From positions 470,348 through 534,347 of the forward strand of contig NZ_ATVH01000014.1 of assembly GCF_000420625.1 (NCBI RefSeq): DNA of 64,000 nt. Direction: 5' to 3'. Positions within the stretch are counted from its first letter, which is position 1, and every line of letters starts with the position of its first letter. Positions 22,335-53,333 of this stretch are shown here, piece by piece. The DNA is from Fodinicurvata sediminis DSM 21159. GTDB taxonomy: Bacteria > Pseudomonadota > Alphaproteobacteria > Kiloniellales > DSM-21159. Below the pieces are notes generated by a model. The model was given only the letters and a program-made list of their open reading frames with translations, had not been told where the DNA came from and did no database searches. Position numbers and translations under genes: made by a program.

Positions 22335-22336
22335 GG

Positions 22337-27342: not shown

Positions 27343-27349
27343 GAGATAC

Positions 27350-31014: not shown

Positions 31015-31056
31015 CCGGACAAGCCCGACAAACCCAAGGCATCAGGACCTGACCCC

Positions 31057-31254: not shown

Positions 31255-31300
31255 CGTGCAATCGACCCTCCGCATGACGCATACGAAAGTGAAATGACGA

Positions 31301-32701: not shown

Positions 32702-32807
32702 TTGCTCTTGCAATTTGCGATAGACTACAAATTCGAGTATCTTACACCACCATTTAAAAATCAGAATACCGAGTCCAAAGGCCAACGACACTTGAAAAGG
32801 GGCGAGC

Positions 32808-33383
32808 ATGAGCGAAGAAGAGAACACAGAGCAAACTGAAGAAGTCACTGTCACGGAATCTGACGAACACCACACTCAGGCTCGCGACTGTATCCATCGC
32901 CACAGCGCCTATGCCGCGGTCGGTGGTCTCGTTCCAATTCCCTTCCTCGAAATGGCGGCAAGCAGCACCATTCAGTTGCGGATGATCGCAAAGCTTTGCG
33001 ATATCTTTGGGGTGCCCTTCTCTGAGAACGCGATCAAGAACTCGATTGCAACTCTGGTGGCAACGGTTCTGCCAGCATCCGGCATTGGGCTTGCAACAGC
33101 CAGCCTGATCCGCCGCGTTCCGGTGGTTGGCACAATTTTCGGTGTTGTTGCCATGCCGACCTTTGCAGCGGCCTGTACCTATGCATTGGGGCGCGTTTTT
33201 GCCTGGCATTTTGCCAAAGGCGGTACTGTTGATGATTTCGATGCCGAGGAAATGAAAGGTCGTTTCCAGGACGAGTTTGCCGAGGGCAAGCGCAAGGCTT
33301 CGGATTTCGTCAAGGGAGAGAAGGCCAGTTCAAAGACAAGCGGCACAAAGACTCCAGGGGGCGCAGCAGCTGCCAAAGCCTGA
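32808..33383 (+). CDS. DUF697-like membrane-associated protein, paralogue 2
   Basis: AAVGGLVPIPFLEMAASSTIQLRMIAKLCDIFGVPF... is colinear with paralogue 1 (GxxPIPxxDxAA...QLxMxA...GxxF). Confidence 0.45.
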   Translation: MSEEENTEQTEEVTVTESDEHHTQARDCIHRHSAYAAVGGLVPIPFLEMAASSTIQLRMIAKLCDIFGVPFSENAIKNSIATLVATVLPASGIGLATASLIRRVPVVGTIFGVVAMPTFAAACTYALGRVFAWHFAKGGTVDDFDAEEMKGRFQDEFAEGKRKASDFVKGEKASSKTSGTKTPGGAAAAKA

Positions 33384-33492: not shown

Positions 33493-34263
33493 ATGAAGCC
33501 TCAAGACGCTGTCCGCGTCCATTCGCTTCAAATGAAACGTGCGAAAGGATCTGTGACCTTCTGCGATGTTACGTATCTGCGTGCGACACTGGTGGTCCTT
33601 GCGCTCGATCAGCTGGATGACGATTGCCTGGACGACTATATGACGTCCTGTTTTCATGCAGAGGAATGGGCCCGGCTGCAGGCGCTGGAACACGACAAAC
33701 GCAAGCAAAGCTACGCCACTGGGCGAATTGCCGCAAAGTTGGCCCTGAAAAGCCATCACGACGGCCTCGACCCACGTGAAATCTCCATTGGATCTGGCGT
33801 ATTCGAACAGCCAGTGATTTGCGTCACGTATCCAGGGATCAGCGAAACGGGCATATCCATTTCGCACTCGGCCAGCTACGCCGCAGCGCTGGTATTCCAT
33901 AGGGCGCATCCGATGGGGATCGATATCGATCTGCCGGCGAAGAAAGACATAGGACCAGTGCTTTCCGGCCTTGCTTCAGAGGAACGGGGTTTGCTCGACG
34001 ATCTGGGTCTCGATGAGTCTGCGGCGGCCACATTGATCTGGGTCGCCCGCGAAAGTCTCGCGAAGACGCTTACCACCGGCATGATGACGCCGCTGTCCAT
34101 CTACGCACCTTCCTCGATCGAGGCAGACAACGGTATTTTCACCCTTCGCTATCGCAATTTCGCCCAGTACCGCACCCTCGTCTGGCAGGGCCTCAAGGGG
34201 TGGCTGGCCGTGACACTTCCAGAACGGACCGCTCTCGACGTATCCAGCCTTCCATGGGCTTGA
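33493..34263 (+). CDS. 4'-phosphopantetheinyl transferase (Sfp/EntD type)
   Basis: GIDID motif (HPMGIDIDL) and WVARESLAKTL (the W/FxxKE[S/A]xxK motif); 256 aa. Confidence 0.8.
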   Translation: MKPQDAVRVHSLQMKRAKGSVTFCDVTYLRATLVVLALDQLDDDCLDDYMTSCFHAEEWARLQALEHDKRKQSYATGRIAAKLALKSHHDGLDPREISIGSGVFEQPVICVTYPGISETGISISHSASYAAALVFHRAHPMGIDIDLPAKKDIGPVLSGLASEERGLLDDLGLDESAAATLIWVARESLAKTLTTGMMTPLSIYAPSSIEADNGIFTLRYRNFAQYRTLVWQGLKGWLAVTLPERTALDVSSLPWA

Positions 34264-37300: not shown

Positions 37301-37799
37301 CGGGCGCCTCGGAGAGTGCGTCGACCTCATCTTGGTCCATACATAGTATGCGGTCGACTGACCCGCAGCGCCATTGCAACTGATGCAGATCCCCGATGTG
37401 GGCGCCATCTCCCACAATTAACGGGAGTCCGGTACTTCGGACGATGGAAAGACGCCGGATCAGCGGCATATTGGGATCGAGCGGGACAAAGGCGCAGCCT
37501 GCCTTGAGGACGCCCAGTATTGTCGTGATGTAGTGCCGCGAACGGCCGGTCATCACGCCGACCAGGGTTTCCTTGCCGAGATCCAGGGCGGCGATGAAAC
37601 GGGCGATCCGGCTGCTTTCGAAATCAAGTTCTCGGTAGGTCAGTTTCCCGTCTTCGTCATGAACGGCCAGGCGCTCGGGATGCTCTGAAAGCCCGTTCGC
37701 AAATCGCTCGACAATGCTGTCGGTCACCACATGCGACGTGGGGGCCGGCGCTTCATGCGAGGCTTCAAGGTCGTCAAAATCGAAATCGCCAATCTTCAT
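34305..37799 (-). CDS. NRPS termination subunit: A domain interrupted by a methyltransferase (between cores a2 and a3) - T - TE
   Basis: a2 LKAGCAFVPLD (aa ~98-108), SAM motif I VLEIGCASG (aa ~226-234), a3 LAYVLFTSGTTGRPKG (aa ~445), A10 NGKIDYAKL, T-domain FFELGGHSV, TE GWSFGG. No C domain. Confidence 0.9.
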   Translation of the reverse strand: MKIGDFDFDDLEASHEAPAPTSHVVTDSIVERFANGLSEHPERLAVHDEDGKLTYRELDFESSRIARFIAALDLGKETLVGVMTGRSRHYITTILGVLKAGCAFVPLDPNMPLIRRLSIVRSTGLPLIVGDGAHIGDLHQLQWRCGSVDRILCMDQDEVDALSEAPGSLMSAELWDHLAGDDADDILAGGWKSAFTGQQIPQKVMEAFGANARSKVAGVVSQDSRVLEIGCASGVTMRHVAPLVGEYVATDISRRNVERTEILAIESGMSHVMGRQLAAHDVDVFEPGSFDLVILNSVIENFPGFGYLRQVLDKVARLLAPGGAIFIGNVWDADRRDAYLADLAAFARENAGKGYDTRLDFLEDLFVPEAFLQDWRAERGGFTSQRSAIDAPGFDPAPYAFDFLLTADDSVAAGYARKRRYARAQLEACSSGAQLADTSAGDLAYVLFTSGTTGRPKGVMIEHGSVVNLAQSVLDTQLLLLGADDPGACLDLTCVAPFGFDGSIVQLFAAILNGQCLHVPGFDTRSDPEALHRFIREHGIDQLDATPSLFALLLDYWEEMGESCGARMVVLGGEVVSTDLVERFFALPGHSDIRVVNAYGPTECCVSAAQYVMTAYNFRQILPPPIGQAIQGVILDICDDQGNSLPDGVPGEIRIGGAGVARGYLGEDDENALKFIKRADGSRWYRSGDVGRRRGDGEIVFVGREDRQVKVRGNRLELGEVENAIARHPLVRRATVIMAEEGQESSPGIVAYLVTEDGFDAAACRAQLEEALPSYMLPSCFICVDEIPLTANGKIDYAKLPSPEKTRPDGMKRPAKPLADAMEHQIAALMADVLDLSVDDADADFFELGGHSVLAVQFLSRITRETGVKIPLSDLFSCSSVARLAARISERKQAQAAKSPLVPVNTTGSAVPMVCFHPVGGNILCYQALARELGPNQPIYMVEAQGLEEGQSLAPSVEEMVAAYMPHVREVIPEGPVFLAGWSFGGLLAYEAAYRLQQAGVEVQGVFLFDAVAVPDAVRELLRKDEAEYLSDLFAELGIVEAAELRPLTPEGRIDLLLERGKNSKLLPREADRGVIRRLLAVFQNNALAAVHYIPPVLETVDVLLIRPKTIISAAPGIEGDDYNGWKSFAGEKVKLEWVPGTHGSMMFDPDIVNVAACIRHELR

Positions 37800-40700
37800 T
37801 CAACTGTCCTTGTGGAAATTCTCGGCTGCTGCGCGGGCAAACCTCTCCAGGAAGCCAAGCCAGCGCTGCATGGTCTGTGCCTCGAAAAGGTCGGTATCAT
37901 ACTCCAGCGTGAAGCGCGCCTGACCGGCCTCTTCAGTCAGGAAAAGAATCAGGTCGTGTTTTGCCGTCGTGTTGTCGACGAATTTGTCCAGATTGCCTGA
38001 CAGCAGGCCTTCCCGTTCGCTGGAAATCGCAGGCAAGCCGCTGTTTTCATCCATGCGAGCCAGCGCATCGAAGCGCTGGTACTCGAAGACCACATTCACA
38101 AGCGGCTGGCGGTTGGCATGGCGTTTGGGCGCCACGGCGCGCACCAGTTCATCAAAGGGATAGTCCTGCCGGTCCAGAGCCGAGGTGATGTTCAGGTGGA
38201 CATCGTCGATCAAGGCCTCCAGATCGGATTCCTCGTCAAGATGCACACGGATCGGCAGGACATTGACGAAGAAGCCGATCAATCCTTCCGTCTCGGTCCT
38301 CTCGCGGCCGGCCACCCCCATACCGATGACCATATCCTGCTGTCGGGTCAGGCGATAAAGCATCGCCGAAAAGATGGCCAGCCCGACAGCCGAAAGCGTC
38401 GTATTGCGGGCCTGCGCCAAGCCATGCAGGCCGCTGAGAACCTCTGGCGCTATAGGCAGATGGACATGAGCCCCGCGATAGGACTGAACCTCCGGCGCCG
38501 GTCGGTCCGTGGGAAGCTTGATCTGCTCAGGCGCCCCCTCCAACTTCGCGCGCCAATACGCGGCCGCCTCCAACCAGTTCTGTTCGACCTGCCAATGGGC
38601 GAAGTCCTTGTAGGTGATGGGCAGTGGCGCCAGATCAGGCGTTTCACCTCCCAATGCTGCTTGATAGAACAGGTTGAGCTCGCGCAACAGAATCCGCGAG
38701 GACCAGCCATCCCCCACGATATGATGTGTTGCCAGGATCAGCAGCTGCTCGTCGGAACCGACCTTGATCATCTGCGCACGGATCAAGGGCGGACGGTCGA
38801 GCGCGACCGGAGTGGCCGCTTCCTCACGCGCCAGGCGCAACGCTTCACGAAGAGGATCGGAATGATCCGAGACATCATTGAAGGCGACAGTCGGTGATGT
38901 GGTTTGGTCAATGCGCTGCACGATACTGCCGTCCTGTTCGATGAAGGCAGTACGCAAGGTTTCATGGCGTTCGACCAGAGCCCGAAGCGCGGATTGCAGG
39001 GCCTCGGCTTTCAGCGCCCCGCTGCACCGCAGCGCAAACAGCATTCCGTAAGCGCCACTGCCGGCCTCCATCTGCGAGAGCAGATACAGCCTTCTTTGCG
39101 CATGACTGGTGGGATAGACATCCATCTTCGGAGCCGGCGGGATGACGGTCCCGGCGGCATGGTTGTCATCTGTGCTCATATCATCGATATGGCGTGCCAG
39201 GCCCGCAATGCTCGGGTTGGCAAAGAAGTCTGCCATGCTGAGACGTTTGCCTGTGCGATCCATGATCCGATTGACAATCCGGATTGCCATCAGACTGTGG
39301 CCGCCAAGGACGGCGAAGCTGGCATTACGGCTCTGGATCGTGGTCTCGAACACTTCACTGAATATATCGGCAACAAGCTGCTCGGTCGGCGCAAGCGCTG
39401 TTTCTTCCTCGTCCGGCCCCTGTGCATCGATCGGGGACTGCATGAGCACCCTGTCCAGCAGTGCCTTGCGATCAACCTTGCCGTTCTCCGTGATCGGGAT
39501 GTCATCGACCAGGTACCATTTCGCCGGCAGCATGTAGCTGGGCAGGCGTTGACCGAGCCAGGCCTGCAGACCTCCCAACCGGCTGTCCGATACGGTACCT
39601 GCTTCATCGCTTTCCTGGATGCAGGCGATGATCTCGCTACCGTTCAGGCCATCAGGGTTGAACAATGCAACGGCATTCCTGATGGAAGGTGCCTGGCGCA
39701 GCTGCTGTTCGATTTCATCCAGTTCGATGCGGAAACCGCGCAGCTTAACCTGGTTGTCCCGGCGGCCGCCAAATTCGATCCGGCCATCACGGGTCCAGCG
39801 TGCCAGGTCGCCGGTCCGGTAGAGTCGTGCACTGGGGCAGTCGGGATCGGGCACGAACCGTTCCGCAGTCAATTCCGGGCGGCCCCAGTATTCGCGCGCC
39901 AGCCTGTCTCCCCCGATCTGCAGTTCTCCCCAGGCCCCGATCGGCACGCGCAATCCGCTTTCGTCACGGATCACCGTCCTGGTGTCCGCAATGGGGCGTC
40001 CAATGACGGTGGAATCCATATTCTCGTCCAGTTCGGACGCCCGGATCCGTGTCACGGTCGTAAAGGTCGTGCTCTCGGTCGGGCCGTAAGCATTCAAAAG
40101 TTGGGTGTCCGGGCAGGCCTCCATGAACCTGCGGGCGTGCGACTTGCTGATGCTGTCGCCGCCGATCATCAGGACCTTCAGTCCCGACAGGCTTGCCGGA
40201 TCATGGTCGATCTGTCGATTGAACAGCCCCACGCTCATGAACATCTTGTCGACACCAAAGCGCTCCAGGGACCTGGCGAAGGCGGCTGGATCGAGCAGCG
40301 TATGGCGATCAATCACGGCGATCTCGGCGCCGCAAAGCAGCGTCGTCCAGATTTCGAAGGTCGCGGCATCGAATGACAATGGCCCGGCCTGGGCCACCAC
40401 ATCACCGGGTGCAACCCAGGCATAGTCCTCGCCCAGGGCCAGGCGCAGGACAGCCCCCTGCTCAATCAGAACCCCCTTGGGCTGACCCGTCGAGCCGGAG
40501 GTGTACATGAGGTAGGCCGGCGCCGCGTGCGGGTCCTGTAATGCCGGGGGCTCGAAACTGCCATCGTCAGGAGGGATTTCGGCGACATGGCAGACCTGTG
40601 CGACACAGTCCGACATCTCTGCGAAGGCAGCTTGTCCGACATCATCGACCAGAACAATTCTGGCGCCACTGTCTTCTAGTATGAAGCGGTTCCGTTCCAC

Positions 40701-43700
40701 TGGATAAGCCGGATCGAGCGGCACATAACCGGCGCCGATTGCAGCGACGCCAAGCATGGCGGCAATTGCCTGACGGCCGCGCTCCACATGCATCGCGATA
40801 AAATCACCCGGCTCGACCCCGGCCGCTGCCAAGTGGCGCGCCACGGCCCGCGCTTCGGCCAGCAATTCGCTGTAGGTCCAGGCGCCCTCGGAATCGCGGG
40901 CGGCGCAGTGCTCTGGCGAAACCGTGACCTTCGACGCAAACAGGCCAAACAGGCTGGTATCATCGGGAACAGTGGCAGCGGGACCGTTCTCCCATACCTG
41001 CAGGTGCCTGGTCTGGTCTTCGGGCAACAGCTCGATGGACCCGACCTGCTGGGCATTGGAGTGGATCAGGCGCTTCAAGGTGTTGGAGAACACCTCGCCA
41101 AGCTGTTCGATACGTGCACGGTCATAAAGGTCCGCATAGTAGTCGAAGGTGATCGCCATCCTCTCGGGCAAATCACGCACGAAGATCGAGATGTCGTTCT
41201 TGCTGTGGCGACGATCGAGGCTGATCACCTTCGGCGCAATGCCGCTGCTGTCCGATCCCGGATTTGCCGCCTGATAGTTCATGTAGGACAGCGTCACTTC
41301 CGACAGCAGAGTTCGATCCGGAGCAGCGGGAGGAGACAGGTCATCGAGAAGCTGGTCCAGGAAATAGGCCCGGTGGCGAAGGGCATTGACATGATGGTGC
41401 TGCATTCGCGCCAGCAGACCCTCGACAGTATCCCTGCCACGGACCTGCATGCGCAAAGGCAACAACGAGACCATCATCCCTGCCACATCCCGGAAACCGG
41501 TAGCATCACGAGCATCCACCGGCACGCCGATGACGAGATCCTCCGTCTCGGCAAGACGCGAGAGAACGACGAACCAGGTCGTCAGGACCAGGGTGAACAT
41601 CGTCACCCGCTGATTTGCGGCAAACTTCCGCGCCTCCCCCAGCAGCTCGGGATCAAGCTCGAACCCGACGATATCTCCCCGGAAGGTGTGATAGGCCGGG
41701 CGACGCCGATCGGCAGGCAGGTCGAGCTTGGGCAGTGAATCGGCATAGAGTGACTGCCAATAGCTCTTCGCCGACGCGAGACGCTGGCGATTGTCATCCG
41801 TGTGGCTCCACCAGGCATAATCGCGCAACTGGTAACGAAGCGGGGCAAGGTCCTCTCCGCAATGAAGTGCAAACAGTTCGCCAAGCAATCGTTCGACACT
41901 AAAGGCGTCGGCAAGTATGTGGTGGATATCGAAGAACAGGGCCGTCTTCCCGGAGGGGTCGGCCAGGAAGCGCCAGCGCACCGGGATCTCATTTTCCAGA
42001 TCGAAGGGCTCCACCAGCGCCGTACAGGCCTCTTCAACCGGCGCGTTGACCTGCGTCACGGGCAGCTCGCTGATGACCTGTGCAGCCGGCAACACCTCCA
42101 TCTGCCAGTCGTCACCATCGGGCAAGATCCGCGTGCGCAAGATTTCATGGCGCTCGGTCAGACTCCGGATTGCGGCCCGTAGACCATCAAGATCACAGTC
42201 TTCGCCAAGCACAAAGGCGTGGGGCAGGTTGAACGCGGTGCCCATGTTGCCCTTCTGCGCGGCATTCATCACCGACAACTGTTCCAGCGCCAAGGGGTAG
42301 CGCGACAACTCCGGTGCACATCGCGGGTCGGCTTCCTCGGGCGGAGCCTGGTCAACCACGTCCGCTGGCGTCTCCGCTTCCGCCTCCAGCGGGGAATCCT
42401 TCACGGCTTCCGCTTCACCGTCCGAAGGCGCCAGTTTCTCCTTCAGTTTCCGGATGCTCGAATGCTCAAACAGGTCGGTGAGGCTCACCTCATGCCCGAG
42501 TTCGCGAACTATGCGATCGGTAATTTCCATACCGGTGATGGAATCTCCGCCAAGCGCATAGAAATCCTCATCTGGATCGACCGCGTCATATCCCAGCGTT
42601 TCGGCCCAGATCGCTGCAAGCGCCTTCTCCAGACCGGCCGCCGGTCGGTCGCCTGTGCCGGCAGCGTCCTCTGGCAGTTCGCCCCCCCTGCCCGCGCCAT
42701 CGGGCGCGCTACGGGCAAGGGCCGCAACTTCCGACACGCTCGAGGCCGTGAAGAGGTCCGAGAGTGTCAAGGAAAGCCCGAGTTCCCCGTTGATCTCGTC
42801 GACGATCTGCATGCCGGTGATGGAATCACCGCCAAGCGCAAAGAAATCATCCTGTGGAGCGACGGAGTCATACCCAAGTACCGCCGCCCAGATCTTCGCG
42901 ATGCGGGCTTCCACATCACTTTCGACAGCGGGTGGCAATGCTGCTTGCGAAGAGACAGATGGGGTTATCGCTTCGGGAACGCTCTGTGGATCATCTTGCA
43001 GAAGGACGGGGTCAAGCATGGTCAGCTGTGCAGTCGAACTGCCCAGTACGCTCCGCCACAGCCTGGCGGCATCTCCCGGACGGATCCAGGCCCCCTCCTG
43101 CATCGGCACATCGTTGCGGGCAGCCATGCCCTGGTCACTGAGCGCACACCAGTCAATCGTCTGGGCTGGCCGCCCTTGGTTTCTGCGCAGCTGTGCAAAA
43201 CCATCCAGGTAGGCGTTCGCTGCCGAATAGGCTGTTTGGCCCGGCGCACCGACCACGGCCGTCAGGCTACCGAACATCATAAAGGCCTGAAGCGGATCAT
43301 TGCGGGTCAGTTGATCAAGGTTCACAGCCCCTGCAACCTTGGCCGATTGCACCGCATCGAACTGTGCCATGTCGCGCAAGGCAAGAAAGCCACCGTCCGC
43401 GATACCGGCGGCATGCACCACCGCCGTGATGGGGCCCAGTTCCTTCCGGATACGATCCAGCGTCTTACCAAGTTCAGCACTGTCGGCAACATCGCAGGCG
43501 AAGAGTGACAGCCCCATCCCCTTGCCACGCAGCGCCTCAAGACCACGCCGTGTGTCCTCGTCCAGGCCCGCTTCATCGCGCCGGCCGAGCAAGGCCAGGT
43601 GCACCTTTCCGCCTGCCGACATTTCCTCGGCCAATGCCAAGGCAAAACCGCCCGTTCCACCGGTGACAAGACATACACCGTAATCCGGCCAGCCGGCGTC

Positions 43701-46700
43701 CTCGCGCCGGTCGCTTTCCTCAAGCGGCACGAGCTTGCGCACGAAACATGATTCATCGCGATAGACAGTGACCGGATCGCGTGCGGGTTTGCAGGCCAGT
43801 TCGGCCCCCAGGCAACTCCGGAGCGTTTCGGGCGTCATGTCGGCATAGCTTATCGCAAGCCTGGGTTCTTCATGTGCAACAGCGGTCACAACGCCTGCTG
43901 TTCCGGATTGATCCGGCGCCATCGCGACATCATCGCCCGCCATCTGGAACGCACCGCACCCCAGGGTGACAAGTCGCAATCCTCCGCTCATGTTGCGCAG
44001 GACACTGCGCAGGGCTTCAGCGTTCCGGCGCGGCGCGTCCGAACCGGGCTGCAGCGCCAGCACCGCATGTGACATGTCCGAGAGAACCCTGCGATCAAGA
44101 TCGTCGGGATGCACCGCCCGGCAGCCGTGTGGCACCGGCCAGAAATCCCCATCCGTGATGAACAGGCACCCCTCGGGGATATCCTGCTGCCGCACGGCTG
44201 TCGTTTCCCAGAGGGTCTTCAGCGGTTCCGGAGCCCCTGTCCTGGCCTCACCGCCTGCGTTACCAAAGCGGATGCCGGTGACCGTCAGGACAGGTTCGAG
44301 GCTGTCGGCATCGAACAGCGTCACATCAAACTTACCGGGAGAATGTAACTGGCCGCACGCAAACACCTCTGCGCTGGATAGCCCATGAACCATGACCCGC
44401 TCTATACCGAGCGGAATGGAGCCTTCAGCCATAATATCCAGGGCCATGCTGCATGCGACATCCGCCAGGGCCGGGTGGAACAGCCAGTCGTCCAGGTCCG
44501 TGTGATACTTGTCGGCCAGTCGCAGATGCTTGATTGCAGAGGTGCTTTCCGGATCGCTCTGGAAGGATAAACTGCAATCCCAGCGCTCACTCATGGCAAC
44601 CGGGCCATACTGTCCGGTGAAGCCTGCAAGAGAGTGTGTAACCGTCGCCTTGCCTCGAATGGATGTCAGATCGGGACCGGGACGGTTGGATGCTATGACG
44701 TGCCTGTTCCATCTGGCCGTAGCAAAGACGCGCCACTTCCCATTCTTCAAACGCCCGGCCAATTCGACTTGGCCGTCCTCGTATATGCTGAGCGTCACCT
44801 TGCCATCAGGCACAGCGGACGCGACCAGTGGGTGATGCCAGGTCAGATCATCTATCCCCACCGTCCGGCCTCCGCCGTCAAGCTGCTTGACTGCCTGGGC
44901 GATCAGTGCCGGCACCGCCATGCCGACAAGAGTCGGCTGGCCGTTCAGCTTGTGCTCATTGACCGGCCAGAAGTCGGGATCACTGATGGCAAGGCTGAAG
45001 CACTGTGCCGTTGCGGTTTCCACCGGCCCCCGCAGCCAGGTTTCTAATGTTCGCTGCCCTGCCTTGAAATCCGGCTTGCAGGGCTTCTTGACGAAGGGGG
45101 CAGACGGCAAGGACACGCGCCGCGCCTGCCGCCCATCGGGCCAGCCGAGCGGCGCACCGTCAAGATAACGGATGATATGACCCTGCGCTTCTGCCGCCGT
45201 GGTGGCAGAGGCACTCCCTGCCTTGCCTTCGCCGGGAGTCTTGGCGAAACCTGCCTGACGTCGGCCATCTGCAAGCTGCGTCAGCTGGTCCAGCAATTCC
45301 TCGCGATTCTGAACTGCGACGGCAAAGCGATACTTCAGGTCATCGCGGCCTGTGGCCAGCGTGAAGGCGATATCGCGCACGGCAAGGCTGTCGTCGGACC
45401 GGATACGCTGATGAAGTTTTGCGGCATAGTCGCGCAATGCCGCCTCGCTGCCCGCTGAAAGAGCAACCACGTGGATTAAACCTGCATCGGTGTGAGCACT
45501 AATTGTGTCGATGAAGGCTTGGGCTGCTTCGACCACCATGTGCGCATTGATTCCGCTCAGGCCAAAGGAGCTGACACCCGCACGCCGTGCCTGGCCACGA
45601 TCGGGCAGTTTCTCCAACCGCTCGGGCACACGAACCGGTGAGCGGTCGAAATCGATCTTCGGATTGGGGTTTTCGAAGAAAGGTTGCGGCGGGGCGCGAT
45701 CATGGCGAAGTGCCAGGATCGCCCGCGCCAAGCCCAACGCACCGGCGGCACCGTCCAGGTGTCCGTAATTGCCCTTCCCCGATCCGATAAAGGCGGATTC
45801 AAACAGCTGATCCCTTCCTTCGAAGGCACGGGTGATGCCATCGATCTCGATCGGATCGCCGAGCGATGTCCCCGTTCCATGCGCCTCGAAATAGGAGAGG
45901 CTTGAAAGATCGATATCGGCGGATTCCGCCGCCTGTCGAATGACCTCCGCTTGCTGCATCGGGTTCGGTGCGGCCGCACCGCTGGAGGCGCCGTCTTGGT
46001 TGACTGCACTGCCGCGAATGACGGCGTGGACGGGGTCTCCATCCTTCATCGCCGCGTCGAGCGGCTTCAGGACAAAGACGGCACTGCCTTCGCCCACCCC
46101 CGTCCCATCGGCATCTGCGTCAAAGGCACGCGTGCGTGCGGTCGAGGAGTCGATTGTGAAAGCGCTGTCCGCATCGGACGGACAGGGCAGCAGCTTTGCG
46201 CCGCCGGCGATGGCGATCCTGCTGCTGCCATCACGCAAACTCTGACAGGCATCGTGGACGGCGACGAGCGAGGAGGAGCACGCCGTATCGATCACCCGGG
46301 CAGGACCATGCCAGTCCTTCAGGTAGGAAAGGCGCGCGACGATGTTGGACGGCACATTGAGGGCGAAGGCCTGCTCGGCCTTCCCGCTCGCCGCATGCTC
46401 CATGACAAGCCGCCAGGCCGGATTGGCACCACCGCCGGCAAACACGCCAACTCTCTGGCCGCGCAGGGCGTTGCCGCCATAACCGGCATTCTCCAGCGCC
46501 ATCAGGGCGGTTTCCATGAACAACCGCTGTTCGGGATCCAACAGGCTGGCGTCCGCGGGTGCCATGCGGAAACGCTGGGCATCGAAATCGAAGATGCTTT
46601 CAAGGTAGGCGGCTTCACGGAAGTGCTTGGGTGCCTTAATGCCGATGGCGGAGAGGAGAGCACGTGTTTCCGCTTCGCGTGTCACCGGAAGCGGGCGGAC

Positions 46701-49700
46701 ATGATCCTGCCCCTCTGCGATATCACGCCAGAAGGCATCCAGATCCTCGGCGCCGGCAAGCTGGACCCCCATGCCGATCACGGCAATCGGTGCAAACTCG
46801 GCCAGCTTCACTTCTGCCGCCTCGGCCAAGTCGCCCGATTTCGCATCGGCAGACTGACCGGCAAGCAGTTCGGCCTGGCGCGCAATCGAGGGGTTGGCAA
46901 AGAGGTCGGCGATCCGAAGCTTTCCCGGCCAGCGCGCCTCGATCTTCTCGAACAGTCGCAGCAACAGAAGGGAGTTTCCGCCTACATCGAAGAAGCCATC
47001 TTCGCGTGCTGGCGCAACATCCGGCAGCACCTCCTGCCAGAACCGGGTAAGTTGCGCTTCAAGCAGGCCTGCCTGCGGGTCATCCTTTTCTGTCGATTCC
47101 ACTGCGGCTTCGGCCGATCTATCGGCGGCATTCGGTGAAGCCGCCAGAGGTGCCCCGGCAAGAGCCTTGCGATCGATCTTGCCGCTGCTCGTCAGCGGCA
47201 GATGCTCGATGACGAAGAAACGGGCGGGCATCATGTACTCAGGCAAGCGACCACGCAGATAGTCACGCAAGCCAAGGGGAGTCAGGTCGTCGCTGCCCAG
47301 GATGAAGGCATGCAATTCGTCGAGTTCGCCGATCTTGACGGCCTTGACCGGCGCGCGCTCCACGGAAGGATGGCTTTCTAGGGCGGCTTCGACCTCACCG
47401 CATTCGATGCGGAAACCGCGAATCTTGACCTGATGATCGATGCGGCCGAGATACTCGATCGTCCCGTCCCGGCGCCATCGCCCCAGGTCACCGGTACGAT
47501 AGAGGCGTTGCCCGGGATTGCATGGATCTTCGGGGAATTTTTCGGCACTCAGTTCGGGACGGTTGCGGTATCCCCGTGCAACCTGAACACCGCCCAGGAC
47601 AATCTCACCGGTCACGCCGATCGGCAGCGGCTGCAGCTCCTCTGTCAGGATCTGAACCGTCGTATTGGCAATCGGTTTGCCAATCGGCACCACAGATCTG
47701 CCCGGACTGGGCGAACAGGGCTGCCAGGTCACATCCACCGTCGCCTCTGTCGGACCATAGAGATTGTGCAGTTCGGTCCCGAATCTCTCGTACAGTAGAT
47801 CGTTGAAACGCTCCACGATCGGAGCGTCCAGGGCTTCACCGCTGGCAAAGACGCGTCTGAGGCTGGACAGCTTGTCGATAGCGACCATGCCGCTTTCGAT
47901 GGCGAACAGGAAGGTCGCAAGCATCGATGGCACGAAATGCAGTGTCGTGACCCCATTGTCGTGGATTGTTTCAGCAAGCTGCTGGGGATCACGCTCGGCC
48001 CCAGGGGGCGGCAGAACGAGTTTCGCACCGGTCCACGACCACCAGAAGAGTTCCCAGACCGACACATCGAAGGTGATCGGGGTTTTCTGCAGGACAACGT
48101 CATCCGGTCCGATCGGGAAGGCGTCCTGCATCCACAGGATCCGGTTCAGGACCCCCCGATGCGCAATCTCGACTCCCTTGGGACGCCCCGTCGACCCGGA
48201 GGTAAACAGCACATAGGCAAGGTCATCCGGTCCGCCGGCGAGCTCCGGGATATCGGTATCCTCATGACCCTCGACAACGAGGACCCGGCCGTCATCGAAC
48301 AGCTCGACAAGATCCGGCGTCGTCAGCACCGGACCATCGCCAAGATCTTCAAGCATCTCCCGACGGCGCTGTTCGGGATGGTCGGGGTCGAGCGGGCTAT
48401 AAGCCGCCCCAGCCAGAAGGATGCCGTGGATAGCAGCCAGCATGTCGACGGAACGCCGCATGGCCAGGCCGACCACCTGACCGGGCCGAACGGACCTTTC
48501 CGCCAGTTTCGTGGCGATTCCGGAGGCGCGCCGCGCAAACTCCGTGTAGGTCAGGCTTTCCCGGCCATCCTGGAGCGCGACTGCATCCGGTGTCCTGCGG
48601 ACCTGATCGAGAAAGGGTTCTGGAATGCTGCGCTCGATTGGCAGATCCTGCGTGGTCGCATTGAACCGGTCGAGCTCGTCCCTTTCGCCCTCCGGCATCA
48701 TGGGCAGGCGCGAAACCGCTGTCGTGGCGCCGGAGGCAAGGGCACTGCGGCAGAGGATGTTCAGTCGTTCGACCAGAGCCGCGATGGTTTCGCGATCGAA
48801 CAGGTCGCTGTCGAACTCGATCTGACCCTGCAGGCGCCCATGACGGCGCCAGAAATAGAAGCCCAGATCGAACTTGGAGAAGGGGAACGCGGTCTCGACC
48901 AGAGAGAGCTCTGCGTCACCCAGTTTGCCCATCTCCGGGATGCCGTCCTGCCAGGCGACCAGGACGTCAAAAAGCGGATTTCGCGAAAGCTCGCGCGGTG
49001 CATTGACCGCACTTACGATGTCCTCAAAGGGCACGGCCTGATCGGACAGTGCATCCATGATCGTCCTGCTGGTGACGGCCAGATGGTCGTCGAACCGCAT
49101 CCCGGGATCGACCGACTGGCGCAGCAGCACAGTGTTGACGAAGAACCCTATGACACTGTCGAGGGCGCTATGCTCGCGCCCGGCAACCAGCATGCCCAGT
49201 GGAATGTCAGTCTGCCCGCAATGGCGATGGAGCAGGAGTTGCACAAGTGCCGTCAGGATACTGAAGGCGGTCGTGCCGCTACGCTCTGCTTTTTCCTCGA
49301 TGAGTTGGGTTGTTTCCGCGTCAAACGTGAAGTCATGGAAACCTCCGGCAAAGCGCCGTTCAGCCCCGCGCGGCCGATCCGTTGGCAGATCAAGCGGTTC
49401 GGGCAAAGGCGTCAAGCGATCTTTCCAGCGTGCGAGCGCCTCCTTGCCGGCATCGCTTTCCAGATAGGCCCGCTGCCAGCTTGCGAAATCTTCATAATGA
49501 CGCTCCAGCTCTGGCAGGACGGCGGCTTCGCTGGCCGCTTCAGCTTGATACAGAGCCGTCAGTTCCTGCAAAAGAATCGGCATGGACCAGCCGTCACAGA
49601 TCGCATGGTGCAGTGAGATCATCAGCCAGTGACGATCGCTAGCCAGGGTGATCAGGTCTGCACGCGCCATTGGCACATCATCGAGGTCGAAAGGCCGCGC

Positions 49701-52700
49701 AGCTTCACATGCAATGAAGCTGCGCGCCGATGCCTCATCCATTCGATGGCGGCGCAAGCTCCAGGACCCGCCGGGGGCTAGATACTGGCTGACTCCATCC
49801 GGATGTCCGGGGTCGCTCCTGAAGCGTAGGCGCAGTGCATGCTGGCGCTCTTCCAAGGCATGAAGCGCGCGCTGCAGGGCCTCGGCATCAACGGAACCAT
49901 CGATCTGGAGCGTTGCCGGAACCGAATAAACGGCAAGATCCGGCTGCATGCGCTGCAGGACCCAAAGCCGGGCCTGACCGCTTGAAAGCGGGAAGCGCTC
50001 GCCGCGTGCCCTGGGCAAGCTGCTAGAGCCCGTTGTCCCTCCCTGGCTATCCACAAGTGCCGCCAGGTTCGCAACTGTGCGTGACGTGAAGATATCCTGA
50101 AGCTTTGGACGGAAACCGGTTTCCTTTTCGATCAGGCCGGCAAGCCGCATGGCGATCAGGCTATGCCCGCCAAGGGCGAAGAAATCGGAAGCCGGCGTGA
50201 TCTCGTTACCGGCGAACAGGCTTTCAAACAGGGCGAGGACGAGCTGTTCTGAAGCGCTATTCGCAGTGGCTGCCTGTACCGGGGTGTCCTCGGCACTTGC
50301 GATCATGGAATGCAGCGCCTTGCGATCCACCTTGCCATTGGCATTGACCGGCAGGTGGTCCAGCACAACGACCCGTTCCGGGATCATGTACTCGGGAAGC
50401 GCGCGCGCCGCTGCGGCAATCCATGAATCGCGATGGTCGCAATCAGCGGCGATTGCAGCGCCAAGAAAGGCATCGGCACCTTTGCCCATAGTCAGGACGC
50501 AGATATTTCGGATGCCCTCCAATTCGGAGAACTTCTGCTCTACCGCCGCAAGCTCGATCCGGTGTCCACGGATCTTGACTTGGCCATCCCCGCGTCCACC
50601 GAATTCGATGGTGCCATCGCTACGCCAGCGGGCCCGATCCCCGGTTCTGTATAGCCGCTCCTCGGCGATATTGCCGTACTGCACGAAGGATCTGGCTGTT
50701 CGTTCGGGAGCGCCACTGTACCCCAGTGCCAGGCCATCACCCGCAGCATGAAGCGTGCCCCAGCAGTCGGTTGGCGCCACTTGGCTCCTGCTGTCCAGAA
50801 CGTAGACCCGGGTATTGCCGATTGGCCTGCCGATGGGGATGTTGCTGGCGGAAACATCCTGCCCGGTGATCCTGTGCGTGCAGGTGAATGTCGTGTTCTC
50901 GGTCGGGCCATAGCCGTTGATCAGCGTCAGATTGGGACAGGCCTGCATGACCTTCATGACATGCGCAGGGCTCAGCGCCTCTCCTCCGGTCATGAGGCGC
51001 TCCAAGGACGCGAAGGCTGTCGGAAGATCGTCGGCTATGCGGTTGAACAGGCTGGACGTCAGCCACAGGCTCGTCACCCCGCACGTATCAAGAGTGTCCT
51101 TCAGTGCGTTGGGATCGAATAGCGTATCATCCTCGATGACTTGAAGCCGCCCACCATTGAGAAGCGGCGCCCAGATCTCGAGCGTCGAAGCATCGAAGCC
51201 AAGAGACGCCGCTTGAGCGATCACATCCTCCGGCCCGAAAGGCAAAGCCACATTGTTCAGAACAAGGCGCGCAACAGCCCGGTTCGGCACCAGAACGCCC
51301 TTGGGCTTTCCGGTCGAACCCGAAGTGAACATGACATAGGCCAGGTCATGCCCCCTGCGCTTTGCAGGAACGGCGTCCCGTGCCCTGCCGTCCTGGTCCT
51401 CGCCACCGCCTTTCGGAAGCGACGTGACCTGGAAGCTGTCTTCAAGTTCGGACAGGCGCGCGCGTTCGCGCGGATCACATAGCAGTGTCCGCGCGTCGCA
51501 CTCGTTCATGAGGTCGGCAACCGTCCTGGCAGGCAGGGACCGGTCAATCGGCAGATAGGCCGCCCCATGCCAGACCAGACCCAGGATCGTAAGGATGCTG
51601 TCCAGACCACGCGCGGCGGCCAGGCCGACGGTCTCCCCCGCCCTGACGCCGCTTTCGTCGAGTTCCGCAGAAATCGCAGCCAGCCGGTTTCCCAGCTCAC
51701 GATAGGTGATCCGGGACCTGCCATCCTCAAGAGCCACCCGCTCAGCAGAATCCGGATGGTTGATGCGCTGTGCCAGCAGTTCGCCAAGACCGGAATCTCT
51801 TGGATAATCCGATTGCGTCGCGTTGAACGCCGTTTCCAGAAGGTGCTTTTCATCTGCCGGAATCAGGTCGACATCGCCGATCGGTTGCGAGGGATCCCTG
51901 GCAAGAGCGCAGGCAAAGTTCAGGAAACGATCCGTAAAACGTTTCACCCAGTCGACGCTGAAGGCGGCTGTTTGATGTTCCACCGCCAGATAGGTACCGG
52001 ATGCGAATTTGACCAGCGCGATCAGCAGCGGGAACTTCCCGGCGCCAACATCGATGTCGGTGACATCCTCCACGTCCTCATGAATTTCGATGACGCTGAC
52101 GGCATCGAACGGCAAATCGGCAGGGCCTTGCGCGTGTTTCGAGAGCCCCTGGATCAGGCGCGTAAGCGGATAGTCCTGCACATCCATAATCGAGAGGATT
52201 TCGCGCCCGACCTGCTTCAGCAGCACATCAAAACCTGCGTCCATATCAGGCGTAATGGCAATCGGCAGGACATTTGCAAAACAACCAAGCGCATGCAGGC
52301 TTTCGCGATCCGCACGCCCGGAAAACGGTAGGCCAAGACAGGCTGCGCCATCCTCTCTGTGGCGCGCGATGACTGCAATCACAAGTGCCATCCAAAGCGC
52401 TGATTGGGTCGCTTTCTCGGCATGGCGCGCTAGTGTCTCCAGCGCTTCGGCTTGGGCTGGTGTCAACTCGACCAGATGGCGTTTGGCCCGATCCTCCTTT
52501 TCCGCAAAGGGGTCGCTTGGCAAGCCCTCGGCCAGAAGCTGGTCGTACCGCTGTTCCCAGAATTCGACAGCCTTGCGTCCACGCTCGCCGGCCAGTTCCC
52601 GGTGAGCGCGCCGGGATAGAGCCTCGGCACTGGATGGGGTTTGCGGCTGCCCGCCTGATAGCTCCTCGAGCAGTTCCTTGCGCAACAACGCGATGGATTG

Positions 52701-53333
52701 ACCATCGAAGCACAAATGGTCAGCGACAAGCCCCAGAAAGGGTGAGTGTGTTTCGGACGGCTCGATATAGCCGAACCTGATGAGCGGGCCGTTCTGAATG
52801 TCGAACACCCTGCTCTGGATATCGTCGAATTGGGCAATTCGAGTGATCGAAACTGGCATTTGCTCGTGCACGCGCTGGATCAACTGGCCATCACGCTCGA
52901 CAAAGGTGGAGCGCAGCGCATCGTTCCGGGCAATGATTCGCCCCAGCGCCCGTTTCACGGCATCGAAGGCGGTATCGTCCGGAAGCCGGAAATGCGTGGC
53001 GATATGGTAATCGTCGCCTGCCGGTATATCGCGGCGGGCCAGCCATTGCCCTTCGACCGCAGGATGAGCTGGGAAACTGGCGACTACGGCGCCAATGTCA
53101 CGATCACGTCCGACTGTCTCTTGCCCATCCGTGCCGTCCCGCAGGATCTCGATGATCTCGTGCTTAAGGGCACGAACCTGCATCTTGAGGTCTTCGTCGA
53201 AGGCCCCGCTTGGCGCATCGAAGACAAGATCGCCTCCATTCTCATGCAGCGAGAGCTGGATATCTCGCGATGCTAGGATCTCAAGCAGCTCGAAGACATC
53301 CGGCTTCCGGTGAATTGGGCTTTCGACATTCAT
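37800..53333 (-). CDS. hybrid NRPS-PKS megasynthetase (5177 aa): dock-C-A-T-C-A-T-KS-(DH-like)-KR-ACP-ACP-C-A-T-C
   Basis: N-terminal TubC-like docking segment (ELLEILASRDIQLSLHENGGDLVFDAP...LKHEIIEIL). C1 DHLCFDG, C2 HHAICDGWS, C3 HHILADAFS, C4 HHIVGDGWS. A domains: FTSGSTGKPKG, FTSGSTGRPKG, YTSGSTGQPKG. T domains: GGHS, GGNS, GGHS. KS: DTACSSS, HGTGT, GHLDGAAG. KR: TGGTGG, YSAAN. ACPs: LGGDS x2. No AT or TE domain. Confidence 0.9.
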   Translation of the reverse strand: MNVESPIHRKPDVFELLEILASRDIQLSLHENGGDLVFDAPSGAFDEDLKMQVRALKHEIIEILRDGTDGQETVGRDRDIGAVVASFPAHPAVEGQWLARRDIPAGDDYHIATHFRLPDDTAFDAVKRALGRIIARNDALRSTFVERDGQLIQRVHEQMPVSITRIAQFDDIQSRVFDIQNGPLIRFGYIEPSETHSPFLGLVADHLCFDGQSIALLRKELLEELSGGQPQTPSSAEALSRRAHRELAGERGRKAVEFWEQRYDQLLAEGLPSDPFAEKEDRAKRHLVELTPAQAEALETLARHAEKATQSALWMALVIAVIARHREDGAACLGLPFSGRADRESLHALGCFANVLPIAITPDMDAGFDVLLKQVGREILSIMDVQDYPLTRLIQGLSKHAQGPADLPFDAVSVIEIHEDVEDVTDIDVGAGKFPLLIALVKFASGTYLAVEHQTAAFSVDWVKRFTDRFLNFACALARDPSQPIGDVDLIPADEKHLLETAFNATQSDYPRDSGLGELLAQRINHPDSAERVALEDGRSRITYRELGNRLAAISAELDESGVRAGETVGLAAARGLDSILTILGLVWHGAAYLPIDRSLPARTVADLMNECDARTLLCDPRERARLSELEDSFQVTSLPKGGGEDQDGRARDAVPAKRRGHDLAYVMFTSGSTGKPKGVLVPNRAVARLVLNNVALPFGPEDVIAQAASLGFDASTLEIWAPLLNGGRLQVIEDDTLFDPNALKDTLDTCGVTSLWLTSSLFNRIADDLPTAFASLERLMTGGEALSPAHVMKVMQACPNLTLINGYGPTENTTFTCTHRITGQDVSASNIPIGRPIGNTRVYVLDSRSQVAPTDCWGTLHAAGDGLALGYSGAPERTARSFVQYGNIAEERLYRTGDRARWRSDGTIEFGGRGDGQVKIRGHRIELAAVEQKFSELEGIRNICVLTMGKGADAFLGAAIAADCDHRDSWIAAAARALPEYMIPERVVVLDHLPVNANGKVDRKALHSMIASAEDTPVQAATANSASEQLVLALFESLFAGNEITPASDFFALGGHSLIAMRLAGLIEKETGFRPKLQDIFTSRTVANLAALVDSQGGTTGSSSLPRARGERFPLSSGQARLWVLQRMQPDLAVYSVPATLQIDGSVDAEALQRALHALEERQHALRLRFRSDPGHPDGVSQYLAPGGSWSLRRHRMDEASARSFIACEAARPFDLDDVPMARADLITLASDRHWLMISLHHAICDGWSMPILLQELTALYQAEAASEAAVLPELERHYEDFASWQRAYLESDAGKEALARWKDRLTPLPEPLDLPTDRPRGAERRFAGGFHDFTFDAETTQLIEEKAERSGTTAFSILTALVQLLLHRHCGQTDIPLGMLVAGREHSALDSVIGFFVNTVLLRQSVDPGMRFDDHLAVTSRTIMDALSDQAVPFEDIVSAVNAPRELSRNPLFDVLVAWQDGIPEMGKLGDAELSLVETAFPFSKFDLGFYFWRRHGRLQGQIEFDSDLFDRETIAALVERLNILCRSALASGATTAVSRLPMMPEGERDELDRFNATTQDLPIERSIPEPFLDQVRRTPDAVALQDGRESLTYTEFARRASGIATKLAERSVRPGQVVGLAMRRSVDMLAAIHGILLAGAAYSPLDPDHPEQRRREMLEDLGDGPVLTTPDLVELFDDGRVLVVEGHEDTDIPELAGGPDDLAYVLFTSGSTGRPKGVEIAHRGVLNRILWMQDAFPIGPDDVVLQKTPITFDVSVWELFWWSWTGAKLVLPPPGAERDPQQLAETIHDNGVTTLHFVPSMLATFLFAIESGMVAIDKLSSLRRVFASGEALDAPIVERFNDLLYERFGTELHNLYGPTEATVDVTWQPCSPSPGRSVVPIGKPIANTTVQILTEELQPLPIGVTGEIVLGGVQVARGYRNRPELSAEKFPEDPCNPGQRLYRTGDLGRWRRDGTIEYLGRIDHQVKIRGFRIECGEVEAALESHPSVERAPVKAVKIGELDELHAFILGSDDLTPLGLRDYLRGRLPEYMMPARFFVIEHLPLTSSGKIDRKALAGAPLAASPNAADRSAEAAVESTEKDDPQAGLLEAQLTRFWQEVLPDVAPAREDGFFDVGGNSLLLLRLFEKIEARWPGKLRIADLFANPSIARQAELLAGQSADAKSGDLAEAAEVKLAEFAPIAVIGMGVQLAGAEDLDAFWRDIAEGQDHVRPLPVTREAETRALLSAIGIKAPKHFREAAYLESIFDFDAQRFRMAPADASLLDPEQRLFMETALMALENAGYGGNALRGQRVGVFAGGGANPAWRLVMEHAASGKAEQAFALNVPSNIVARLSYLKDWHGPARVIDTACSSSLVAVHDACQSLRDGSSRIAIAGGAKLLPCPSDADSAFTIDSSTARTRAFDADADGTGVGEGSAVFVLKPLDAAMKDGDPVHAVIRGSAVNQDGASSGAAAPNPMQQAEVIRQAAESADIDLSSLSYFEAHGTGTSLGDPIEIDGITRAFEGRDQLFESAFIGSGKGNYGHLDGAAGALGLARAILALRHDRAPPQPFFENPNPKIDFDRSPVRVPERLEKLPDRGQARRAGVSSFGLSGINAHMVVEAAQAFIDTISAHTDAGLIHVVALSAGSEAALRDYAAKLHQRIRSDDSLAVRDIAFTLATGRDDLKYRFAVAVQNREELLDQLTQLADGRRQAGFAKTPGEGKAGSASATTAAEAQGHIIRYLDGAPLGWPDGRQARRVSLPSAPFVKKPCKPDFKAGQRTLETWLRGPVETATAQCFSLAISDPDFWPVNEHKLNGQPTLVGMAVPALIAQAVKQLDGGGRTVGIDDLTWHHPLVASAVPDGKVTLSIYEDGQVELAGRLKNGKWRVFATARWNRHVIASNRPGPDLTSIRGKATVTHSLAGFTGQYGPVAMSERWDCSLSFQSDPESTSAIKHLRLADKYHTDLDDWLFHPALADVACSMALDIMAEGSIPLGIERVMVHGLSSAEVFACGQLHSPGKFDVTLFDADSLEPVLTVTGIRFGNAGGEARTGAPEPLKTLWETTAVRQQDIPEGCLFITDGDFWPVPHGCRAVHPDDLDRRVLSDMSHAVLALQPGSDAPRRNAEALRSVLRNMSGGLRLVTLGCGAFQMAGDDVAMAPDQSGTAGVVTAVAHEEPRLAISYADMTPETLRSCLGAELACKPARDPVTVYRDESCFVRKLVPLEESDRREDAGWPDYGVCLVTGGTGGFALALAEEMSAGGKVHLALLGRRDEAGLDEDTRRGLEALRGKGMGLSLFACDVADSAELGKTLDRIRKELGPITAVVHAAGIADGGFLALRDMAQFDAVQSAKVAGAVNLDQLTRNDPLQAFMMFGSLTAVVGAPGQTAYSAANAYLDGFAQLRRNQGRPAQTIDWCALSDQGMAARNDVPMQEGAWIRPGDAARLWRSVLGSSTAQLTMLDPVLLQDDPQSVPEAITPSVSSQAALPPAVESDVEARIAKIWAAVLGYDSVAPQDDFFALGGDSITGMQIVDEINGELGLSLTLSDLFTASSVSEVAALARSAPDGAGRGGELPEDAAGTGDRPAAGLEKALAAIWAETLGYDAVDPDEDFYALGGDSITGMEITDRIVRELGHEVSLTDLFEHSSIRKLKEKLAPSDGEAEAVKDSPLEAEAETPADVVDQAPPEEADPRCAPELSRYPLALEQLSVMNAAQKGNMGTAFNLPHAFVLGEDCDLDGLRAAIRSLTERHEILRTRILPDGDDWQMEVLPAAQVISELPVTQVNAPVEEACTALVEPFDLENEIPVRWRFLADPSGKTALFFDIHHILADAFSVERLLGELFALHCGEDLAPLRYQLRDYAWWSHTDDNRQRLASAKSYWQSLYADSLPKLDLPADRRRPAYHTFRGDIVGFELDPELLGEARKFAANQRVTMFTLVLTTWFVVLSRLAETEDLVIGVPVDARDATGFRDVAGMMVSLLPLRMQVRGRDTVEGLLARMQHHHVNALRHRAYFLDQLLDDLSPPAAPDRTLLSEVTLSYMNYQAANPGSDSSGIAPKVISLDRRHSKNDISIFVRDLPERMAITFDYYADLYDRARIEQLGEVFSNTLKRLIHSNAQQVGSIELLPEDQTRHLQVWENGPAATVPDDTSLFGLFASKVTVSPEHCAARDSEGAWTYSELLAEARAVARHLAAAGVEPGDFIAMHVERGRQAIAAMLGVAAIGAGYVPLDPAYPVERNRFILEDSGARIVLVDDVGQAAFAEMSDCVAQVCHVAEIPPDDGSFEPPALQDPHAAPAYLMYTSGSTGQPKGVLIEQGAVLRLALGEDYAWVAPGDVVAQAGPLSFDAATFEIWTTLLCGAEIAVIDRHTLLDPAAFARSLERFGVDKMFMSVGLFNRQIDHDPASLSGLKVLMIGGDSISKSHARRFMEACPDTQLLNAYGPTESTTFTTVTRIRASELDENMDSTVIGRPIADTRTVIRDESGLRVPIGAWGELQIGGDRLAREYWGRPELTAERFVPDPDCPSARLYRTGDLARWTRDGRIEFGGRRDNQVKLRGFRIELDEIEQQLRQAPSIRNAVALFNPDGLNGSEIIACIQESDEAGTVSDSRLGGLQAWLGQRLPSYMLPAKWYLVDDIPITENGKVDRKALLDRVLMQSPIDAQGPDEEETALAPTEQLVADIFSEVFETTIQSRNASFAVLGGHSLMAIRIVNRIMDRTGKRLSMADFFANPSIAGLARHIDDMSTDDNHAAGTVIPPAPKMDVYPTSHAQRRLYLLSQMEAGSGAYGMLFALRCSGALKAEALQSALRALVERHETLRTAFIEQDGSIVQRIDQTTSPTVAFNDVSDHSDPLREALRLAREEAATPVALDRPPLIRAQMIKVGSDEQLLILATHHIVGDGWSSRILLRELNLFYQAALGGETPDLAPLPITYKDFAHWQVEQNWLEAAAYWRAKLEGAPEQIKLPTDRPAPEVQSYRGAHVHLPIAPEVLSGLHGLAQARNTTLSAVGLAIFSAMLYRLTRQQDMVIGMGVAGRERTETEGLIGFFVNVLPIRVHLDEESDLEALIDDVHLNITSALDRQDYPFDELVRAVAPKRHANRQPLVNVVFEYQRFDALARMDENSGLPAISSEREGLLSGNLDKFVDNTTAKHDLILFLTEEAGQARFTLEYDTDLFEAQTMQRWLGFLERFARAAAENFHKDS

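Follow-up and report, generated by a model that had tools for sequence, protein, structure and literature searches.

The 64,000-nucleotide stretch analyzed here, called the window below, comes from the alphaproteobacterium Fodinicurvata sediminis DSM 21159 (contig NZ_ATVH01000014.1, positions 470,348 to 534,347) and carries three adjoining minus-strand genes that, judged from their sequence, form a thalassospiramide-type (ttc/ttm) assembly line combining nonribosomal peptide synthetase (NRPS) modules with polyketide synthase (PKS) ones. According to Pfam, the ttcA-like subunit (53333..58213; 1626 aa; WP_022728593) consists of a starter condensation (C) domain, a carrier (T) domain without an adenylation (A) domain, and PKS module 1b, in which a ketosynthase (KS), an acyltransferase (AT) and an acyl carrier protein (ACP) occur without a ketoreductase (KR). 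The ttcB-like gene (37800..53333) is a single intact open reading frame for a 5177-aa megaprotein with a TubC_N docking region followed by C-A-T, C-A-T, KS-DH-KR-T-T, C-A-T and C, where DH denotes a dehydratase. A ttcC-like terminal half-module (34305..37799; 1164 aa) completes the line with an A domain interrupted by a methyltransferase (MT), a T domain and a thioesterase (TE). Of ten window proteins tested, nine match F. sediminis sequences exactly, on a contig of 551,509 nt. The feature under study is the PKS module within the megaprotein, which corresponds to module 4 of the thalassospiramide lines. A preliminary description of this DNA had portrayed it as an AT-less module with a probably degenerate DH and tandem ACPs, in a line with only one cis-AT.

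Module 4 spans residues ~2180-3640 of the megaprotein, and Pfam recovers the domain order given in the preliminary description, namely KS, a linker formed by the KS flanking subdomain, DH, KR and two ACPs. KS4 (aa 2182-2550; 45684..46790) retains a complete Cys-His-His set in the motifs DTACSSS (Cys2351), EAHGTGT and GNYGH, and is predicted to be condensation-competent. The flanking subdomain and return linker that follow (aa 2551-2744; 45102..45683) end in LPSAPF, and Pfam detects a KS C-terminal extension and a RhiE-like linker at aa ~2556-2691.

An AT domain is absent from this module. Pfam finds no match to Acyl_transf_1 in the 5177-aa protein, a GHSxG motif occurs nowhere in it, and residues 2551-2800 searched alone at E<=10 return only RhiE-like_linker, CurL-like_PKS_C and KAsynt_C_assoc. 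The end of the KS and the LPSAPF sequence with which the DH begins are only ~195 residues apart, a gap that leaves no room for an AT. A six-frame tblastn search of the entire window, using the cis-AT and E. coli FabD as queries, located one AT at 53954-54883 in the upstream subunit, and all other matches had E>0.09. We rejected the possibility that the linker conceals an AT, whether hidden or split, as the tblastn search, the permissive domain scan and the motif search are all empty there. Thus, the claims that module 4 lacks an AT and that the window's sole AT belongs, in cis, to the upstream subunit are both upheld, including for the interval at aa 2610-2810 where an overlooked domain had been considered. 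The lone AT, AT1b (54038..54838, minus strand), matches Acyl_transf_1 with 163 bits at aa 1126-1392 of its protein and contains GHSIG and RAFHS motifs, which we take to be malonyl-specific.

The affinities of KS4 were examined among 238 KS domains drawn from the 120 best database matches plus relatives, with a crude similarity ranking in place of TransATor typing. The 38 top-scoring neighbors of KS4 in this set, which was pre-selected by whole-module similarity, are all AT-less, and the neighbors of KS1b in the same ranking are mixed. Comparison with the PDB gives 314 bits for CurL and 295-309 bits for AT-less KSs when KS4 is the query, and for neither KS4 nor KS1b do such comparisons separate cis-AT from trans-AT enzymes. 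KS4 is not placed firmly among cis-AT KSs, and groups with AT-less ones to the extent that a crude ranking can indicate.

The dehydratase domain DH4 (aa 2745-3040; 44214..45101, minus strand) looks intact rather than degenerate. Degeneracy had been read from the string HPLVASAVP (aa 2834-2842; 44808..44834), in which an alanine appeared to replace the glycine of the HxxxGxxxxP signature. This reading fails because the wrong motif was chosen. The catalytic motif, EH2794KLNGQPTLVG, lies 40 residues upstream of HPLVASAVP; its glycine is present and only the final proline is changed, to valine. The partner of His2794 (codon at 44952-44954) is Asp2958 (44460-44462), found within HPALAD. In a phmmer alignment against the PDB, EH2794KLNGQPTLVG pairs with EHRVNGQAVLAG in the RzxB dehydratase structure and HPLVASAVP falls on the following, non-catalytic strand.

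A search of the PDB with the single DH sequence returned only this one weak match (RzxB, E 0.002). We also aligned eight homologs, comprising the window sequence, Thalassospira sp. HF15, Tistrella bauzanensis and five sequences from metagenomes or metagenome-assembled genomes (MAGs). His2794, Gly2798 and Asp2958 are invariant in this alignment, and the HPLVASAVP stretch is variable. The corresponding profile matches 30 distinct PDB sequences, nearly all of them PKS DHs, including RzxB (1e-13), PksJ DH1, a MAS-like DH, CurF and CurK. In the three profile alignments printed in full, the histidine and the aspartate of HPALLD are in register, with Asp2958 aligned to the aspartates of RzxB, PksJ and the MAS-like DH. 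An AlphaFold2 model of DH4 (pLDDT 71.9, pTM 0.76) adopts a double-hotdog fold, and its best Foldseek matches are the DHs of AlnB, RzxB, CurK, CurF and PksJ, with E values of ~1e-15 and TM scores of 0.67-0.73 normalized to the target or 0.63-0.66 normalized to the query. Alignment to known active DHs had been proposed as a check on the supposed degeneracy; comparison with solved PKS DHs finds the catalytic residues in register, and annotation of DH4 as intact, with His2794 and Asp2958 as its predicted dyad, appears warranted.

The remainder of the module comprises the catalytic subdomain of KR4 (aa 3219-3399; 43137..43679) and two carrier domains, T4a (42699..42914; Ser3504) and T4b (42429..42632; Ser3598), all on the minus strand. 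KR4 scores 165 bits with Pfam and displays TGGTGG, YSAAN and HAAGIADG, the last resembling the xxD motif of B-type ketoreductases. A B-type KR motif goes with a D-hydroxy product. The presence of tandem ACPs is confirmed, as each carrier domain has its serine in a GGDS sequence, and the two have 39 identical residues in an alignment of 87 positions. That the pair serves beta-branching was rejected because no HMGS/ECH cassette genes are present in the window and no tryptophan flag follows either Ser3504 or Ser3598. The search for discrete AT or beta-branching genes that had been suggested returned none within the 64 kb that it covered.

The assignment of the locus to the thalassospiramide family is founded on both sequence and layout. 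Module 4 aligns with that of Thalassospira sp. HF15 as one colinear segment of ~1470 residues at 56% identity, and with that of Tistrella bauzanensis at 44%. These orthologs were reached through the short TtcC-like protein and the DNA upstream of its gene in relatives. Searches with module 4 itself were less informative. A scan of GTDB species genomes returned only unrelated PKSs of <=42% identity, the six peptide patterns used being probably Fodinicurvata-specific and missing Thalassospira and Tistrella. A protein search yielded no TtcB ortholog among listed matches that were all <=2557 aa, perhaps because very long proteins are absent from the index. The ttcC-like protein is 64-70% identical to Thalassospira proteins at 98-100% coverage (one truncated match, 85%) and 50% identical to the Tistrella bauzanensis protein named TtbB in UniRef. 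The locus further exhibits the split C | A(MT)-T-TE terminus, a central megaprotein with the domain order of the ~5200-aa family protein, and an AT-less module 4 with no discrete AT or A gene within the 64 kb. It also has a lipoinitiation module of putative starter C and T domains followed by a KR-less PKS module 1b with KS-AT-T.

Within the family, the three-protein layout is the same as that of Ttc (TtcA-TtcB-TtcC) from Thalassospira sp. CNJ-328, although our sequence comparisons used strain HF15 and other database sequences rather than CNJ-328 itself. Both lines confine their cis-AT to module 1b, lack a KR in that module, have an AT-less module 4 and encode a clustered phosphopantetheinyl transferase (PPTase). 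In contrast to Ttc, whose TtcA contains an active A1a domain, module 1a of Fodinicurvata has no A domain. In the Ttm and Ttb lines of Tistrella mobilis and T. bauzanensis, module 4 likewise has no AT but carries DH-KR and tandem T domains, the terminal protein is A(MT)-T-TE, and the first module contains no functional A domain. However, going by its authors' lists of absent domains, Ttm lacks A5 as well as PKS module 1b, and hence has no cis-AT, whereas Fodinicurvata keeps both; the genomic context in Tistrella also differs. The Fodinicurvata line therefore appears to mix both extremes, lacking A1a as in Tistrella while sharing with Thalassospira CNJ-328 both module 1b and a complete A5.

Resemblances to other systems are more partial. 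The bacillaene proteins PksJ and PksN and the rhizoxin protein RzxB likewise combine a KS and flanking subdomain without an AT with tandem carriers, and it is the DHs of RzxB and PksJ that DH4 most resembles. Those clusters bring discrete ATs of their own and usually contain numerous AT-less modules, whereas Fodinicurvata has a single AT-less module inside an NRPS and, within the 64 kb, no clustered AT, beta-branching cassette or tryptophan-flagged ACP. The FK228 (romidepsin) line contains AT-less PKS modules in an NRPS context with no clustered AT, and these are thought to be served by the malonyltransferase of fatty acid synthase. The same arrangement and the same source of malonyl groups are proposed for the didemnin line (PMC5577590). 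FK228 and didemnin are unrelated products of lines that have other module orders and no cis-AT module, and they are likened here by description only.

The work on Ttc and Ttm already lists AT4 as a missing domain, newly annotates DH4, and reports no stand-alone AT or A genes near ttc or ttm (bioRxiv 10.1101/560987). Mixed cis-AT and AT-less modules, a cryptic DH and tandem carriers are accordingly known from the literature as hallmarks of thalassospiramide synthetases, and earlier work has also noted the cluster in Fodinicurvata. The preliminary description had called this combination atypical, which is fair for PKSs in general, but the family to which it belongs is described and experimentally studied.

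These comparisons suggest how module 4 might operate. KS4 would accept from the preceding T domain a peptidyl chain ending in serine, as implied by the serine-type code of A3, and would condense it with malonate carried on T4a or T4b. KR4 would then reduce the beta-keto group, and DH4, with its His/Asp pair intact, could optionally dehydrate the product to a gamma-amino-alpha,beta-enoyl unit, the warhead of the 12-membered thalassospiramide ring. The chain would pass to C5-A5-T5 and on to the split C6 | A6(MT)-T-TE, with release by the TE. In Ttc and Ttm, DH4 is conditional, in that Ser-C2 units returned to module 2 keep their hydroxyl group and only the last one becomes the enoyl warhead (bioRxiv 10.1101/560987). 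The tandem carriers would raise flux and leave the chemistry unchanged. Fusing the two T domains of TtcB into one lowered all yields equally, and Oceanibaculum has a single T domain (bioRxiv 10.1101/560987). The TtcB deletion used (residues 3511-3596) coincides with the interval between the carrier serines 3504 and 3598 of the Fodinicurvata protein.

The malonyl groups on T4a and T4b very probably come from a non-clustered, housekeeping malonyl-CoA:ACP transacylase of the FabD type acting in trans, rather than from AT1b. Both Ttc and Ttm yield their full product suites in Pseudomonas putida with no AT co-transferred, and the authors propose that an AT of host primary metabolism serves module 4 (bioRxiv 10.1101/560987). 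When AT1b of Ttc is inactivated, B-like products remain at 8-24% of wild type, which the authors attribute to complementation of AT1b by the trans-acting AT of module 4 (bioRxiv 10.1101/560987). The preliminary description had left two options, loading by AT1b in trans or by an AT encoded elsewhere. The latter is favored because Ttm without a cis-AT, Ttc with an inactive AT1b, and P. putida hosts are all productive. In this argument, the anatomy, the absence of an AT, the catalytic residues and the orthology come from the present analysis, and it is the literature on the orthologs that supplies AT independence, what the tandem T domains do, and the conditional DH. We infer that the Fodinicurvata line would behave as its orthologs do, with FabD as the loading enzyme.

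Several points weigh against this account. Loading of T4a and T4b by FabD is the authors' hypothesis even for Ttc and Ttm (bioRxiv 10.1101/560987), and the AT search covered the 64-kb window, such that a dedicated discrete AT could lie elsewhere in the F. sediminis genome. The Fodinicurvata line is known from sequence alone. A review notes that Fodinicurvata has a thalassospiramide cluster, yet no product has been detected from the genus, and for that reason the cluster may be silent or impaired (PMC5577590). With regard to DH4, Pfam scores are marginal (28.5 bits for PKS_DH_N and 22.3 bits for PS-DH), and the predicted structure is of moderate quality and was built on a six-sequence alignment. 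The proline of HxxxGxxxxP is replaced by valine, with alanine at this position in the solved RzxB DH; the Q/H of DxxxQ/H is replaced by serine at +4 from Asp2958; and GYxYGPxF is represented only by GQYGPV, which is poorly conserved in the family. These deviations from consensus leave the catalytic His/Asp dyad untouched.

Among the alternatives, the one that survives best, though improbable, is a dedicated, pathway-specific discrete trans-AT of the kind known from classical trans-AT systems, with its gene at another place in the F. sediminis genome. KS4 and its RhiE-like flanking subdomain do resemble those of trans-AT PKSs, and the window is only part of a 551-kb contig. However, no discrete AT gene is present within the ~24 kb downstream and ~6 kb upstream of the synthetase genes, none is found in the stretches examined for relatives, and heterologous production by Ttc and Ttm needed no co-transferred AT. 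It is somewhat less probable still that AT1b malonylates the carriers of module 4 in trans, making the line self-sufficient. AT1b is the sole AT in 64 kb and has malonyl-type motifs, thalassospiramide lines share other domains between modules (A3 loads T1a, and MT6 acts in module 5), and a cis-AT module 1b co-occurs with an AT-less module 4 in a distant relative (locus L083) as well. This option is disfavored because Ttm makes thalassospiramides without a cis-AT module 1b, and because Ttc with inactive AT1b still forms products that all need module 4.

The least credible alternative is a degenerate DH4 in a module delivering only a beta-hydroxy, statine-like unit, as the marginal Pfam scores, the lost consensus positions and the release of non-dehydrated Ser-C2 linker units by module 4 of Ttc and Ttm during pass-back are outweighed by a dyad that is invariant in Thalassospira, Tistrella and five metagenomic relatives and aligned with the catalytic residues of solved DHs (among which RzxB also lacks the proline), by the double-hotdog model, and by a B-type-like KR4 motif consistent with a dehydratable D-hydroxy product. 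Family products, moreover, bear an alpha,beta-unsaturated carbonyl, as stated in two reports (PMC4350077; PMC3705361). With FabD-type loading and an intact DH4 as the preferred reading, the outcome is corrective, in that DH4 can be annotated as intact and module 4 is not an orphan in need of a missing AT. The family is a good model for a housekeeping malonyltransferase serving a single AT-less module within an NRPS.

Outside module 4, the initiation module has its own peculiarity. In the 1626-aa subunit, whose modules read C-T-KS-AT-ACP and whose starter C domain has the motif HHLVCDG, the C and T domains of module 1a are joined directly (aa 1-560), with no A domain or remnant of one and only ~80 residues between the end of the Pfam C match (aa 449) and the carrier serine (aa 533). 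The absence of A1a resembles the non-functional A1 reported for Tistrella. The T domain of module 1a must presumably be loaded by an A domain from another module, since none is present there, as in Ttc, where A3 loads T1a (bioRxiv 10.1101/560987), and in the A-less module 1 of Ttm.

Specificity codes were extracted by alignment to a GrsA segment. The code of A3, DVWHFSLV-K, agrees with those of Thalassospira and Tistrella at each of the nine positions that align, position 9 of the window sequence falling in an alignment gap, and that of A6, DGVDVGAVSK, is identical to the Thalassospira code. We take A3 to be serine-type and both A2 (DALWMGGFTK) and A5 (DAFGMGATFK) to be valine-like. The codes are in agreement with the family specificities of Val (A2), Ser (A3), Val (A5) and Tyr (A6). 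In the terminal protein (34305-37799, minus strand), the MT is inserted near the N-terminus of A6, Pfam placing it at aa 221-352. Of the AMP-binding profile, only positions 155-384 are covered by the main matching stretch (aa 434-665), and therefore the core of the A domain lies after the MT, making A6 an interrupted domain of unusual type. MT6 also methylates the module 5 residue in the orthologs (bioRxiv 10.1101/560987).

Among the C domains of the megaprotein, C5 has the motif HHILADA. C2, the domain that mediates pass-back in Ttc and Ttm, reads DHLCFDG where HHxxxDG is expected (aa ~205-211; window ~52700-52730, minus strand), so that the first histidine is replaced and the catalytic second histidine is kept. 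The last 3328 residues of the HF15 megaprotein include A3 only, with no A5 domain. The NCBI assembly of HF15 gives the megaprotein's last C domain a gene of its own (240 aa; L080 9266-9988) and ends the upstream gene at 9265, whereas a Logan contig with the same TtcC protein (L081 1-9988) has one continuous gene. An assembly error or a frameshift may explain the split in HF15.

Next to the synthetase genes, in the position of TtcD, lies a plus-strand PPTase gene (33493..34263; Pfam ACPS/4PPT_N), and in Thalassospira the equivalent position beside ttcC is occupied by a 257-aa gene for which no Pfam match is recorded. The accessory genes of the window (19906..33383) were compared with loci L080 and L083 and encode a type II thioesterase, two ABC exporters, a PALP enzyme, an NMT1_3 binding protein, GNAT and MFS proteins, and a DUF697-Band_7-DUF697 cassette. 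The order PPTase, DUF697-Band_7-DUF697, MFS, NMT1_3 binding protein and PALP enzyme is common to the window and Thalassospira. The cassette, in which the Band_7/SPFH gene is flanked by the two DUF697 genes (30508-33383, plus strand), is situated between the PPTase and MFS genes. The same genes adjoin the cluster in HF15, and DUF697 and Band_7 genes also adjoin it in the distant relative L083. This retained adjacency suggests a conserved, uncharacterized accessory function. The type II thioesterase gene and the two ABC transporter genes annotated for cyclic peptide export (19906-23989) lie ~10-14 kb from the synthetase genes and probably belong to the cluster, because their counterparts directly follow the ttcC-like gene in L083.

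The TtcC-like family seems to reach well beyond the four Rhodospirillales genera that the literature names. Proteins with the A(MT)-T-TE arrangement and 48-57% identity are found in genomes or MAGs of Magnetovirga frankeli, Telmatospirillum, Pleomorphomonas, Nitrospirillum, Chlorobiaceae and Acidobacteria, and many metagenome contigs carry them as well. We tentatively suggest that the Fodinicurvata line, if expressed, might make undescribed analogs, and that the design dependent on a housekeeping AT may extend far beyond those four genera. The distant relative L083 keeps the combination of a cis-AT in module 1b and an AT-less module 4, and a Chlorobiaceae locus (L085) has a rearranged gene order. 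Copies of the ttcC-like protein at 95% (near-identical) and 80% identity occur on contigs of the Logan read archive and in a MAG labeled "Pseudomonadota bacterium" (P0125, P0126, P0147), which shows that environmental data contain close relatives of the Fodinicurvata cluster.

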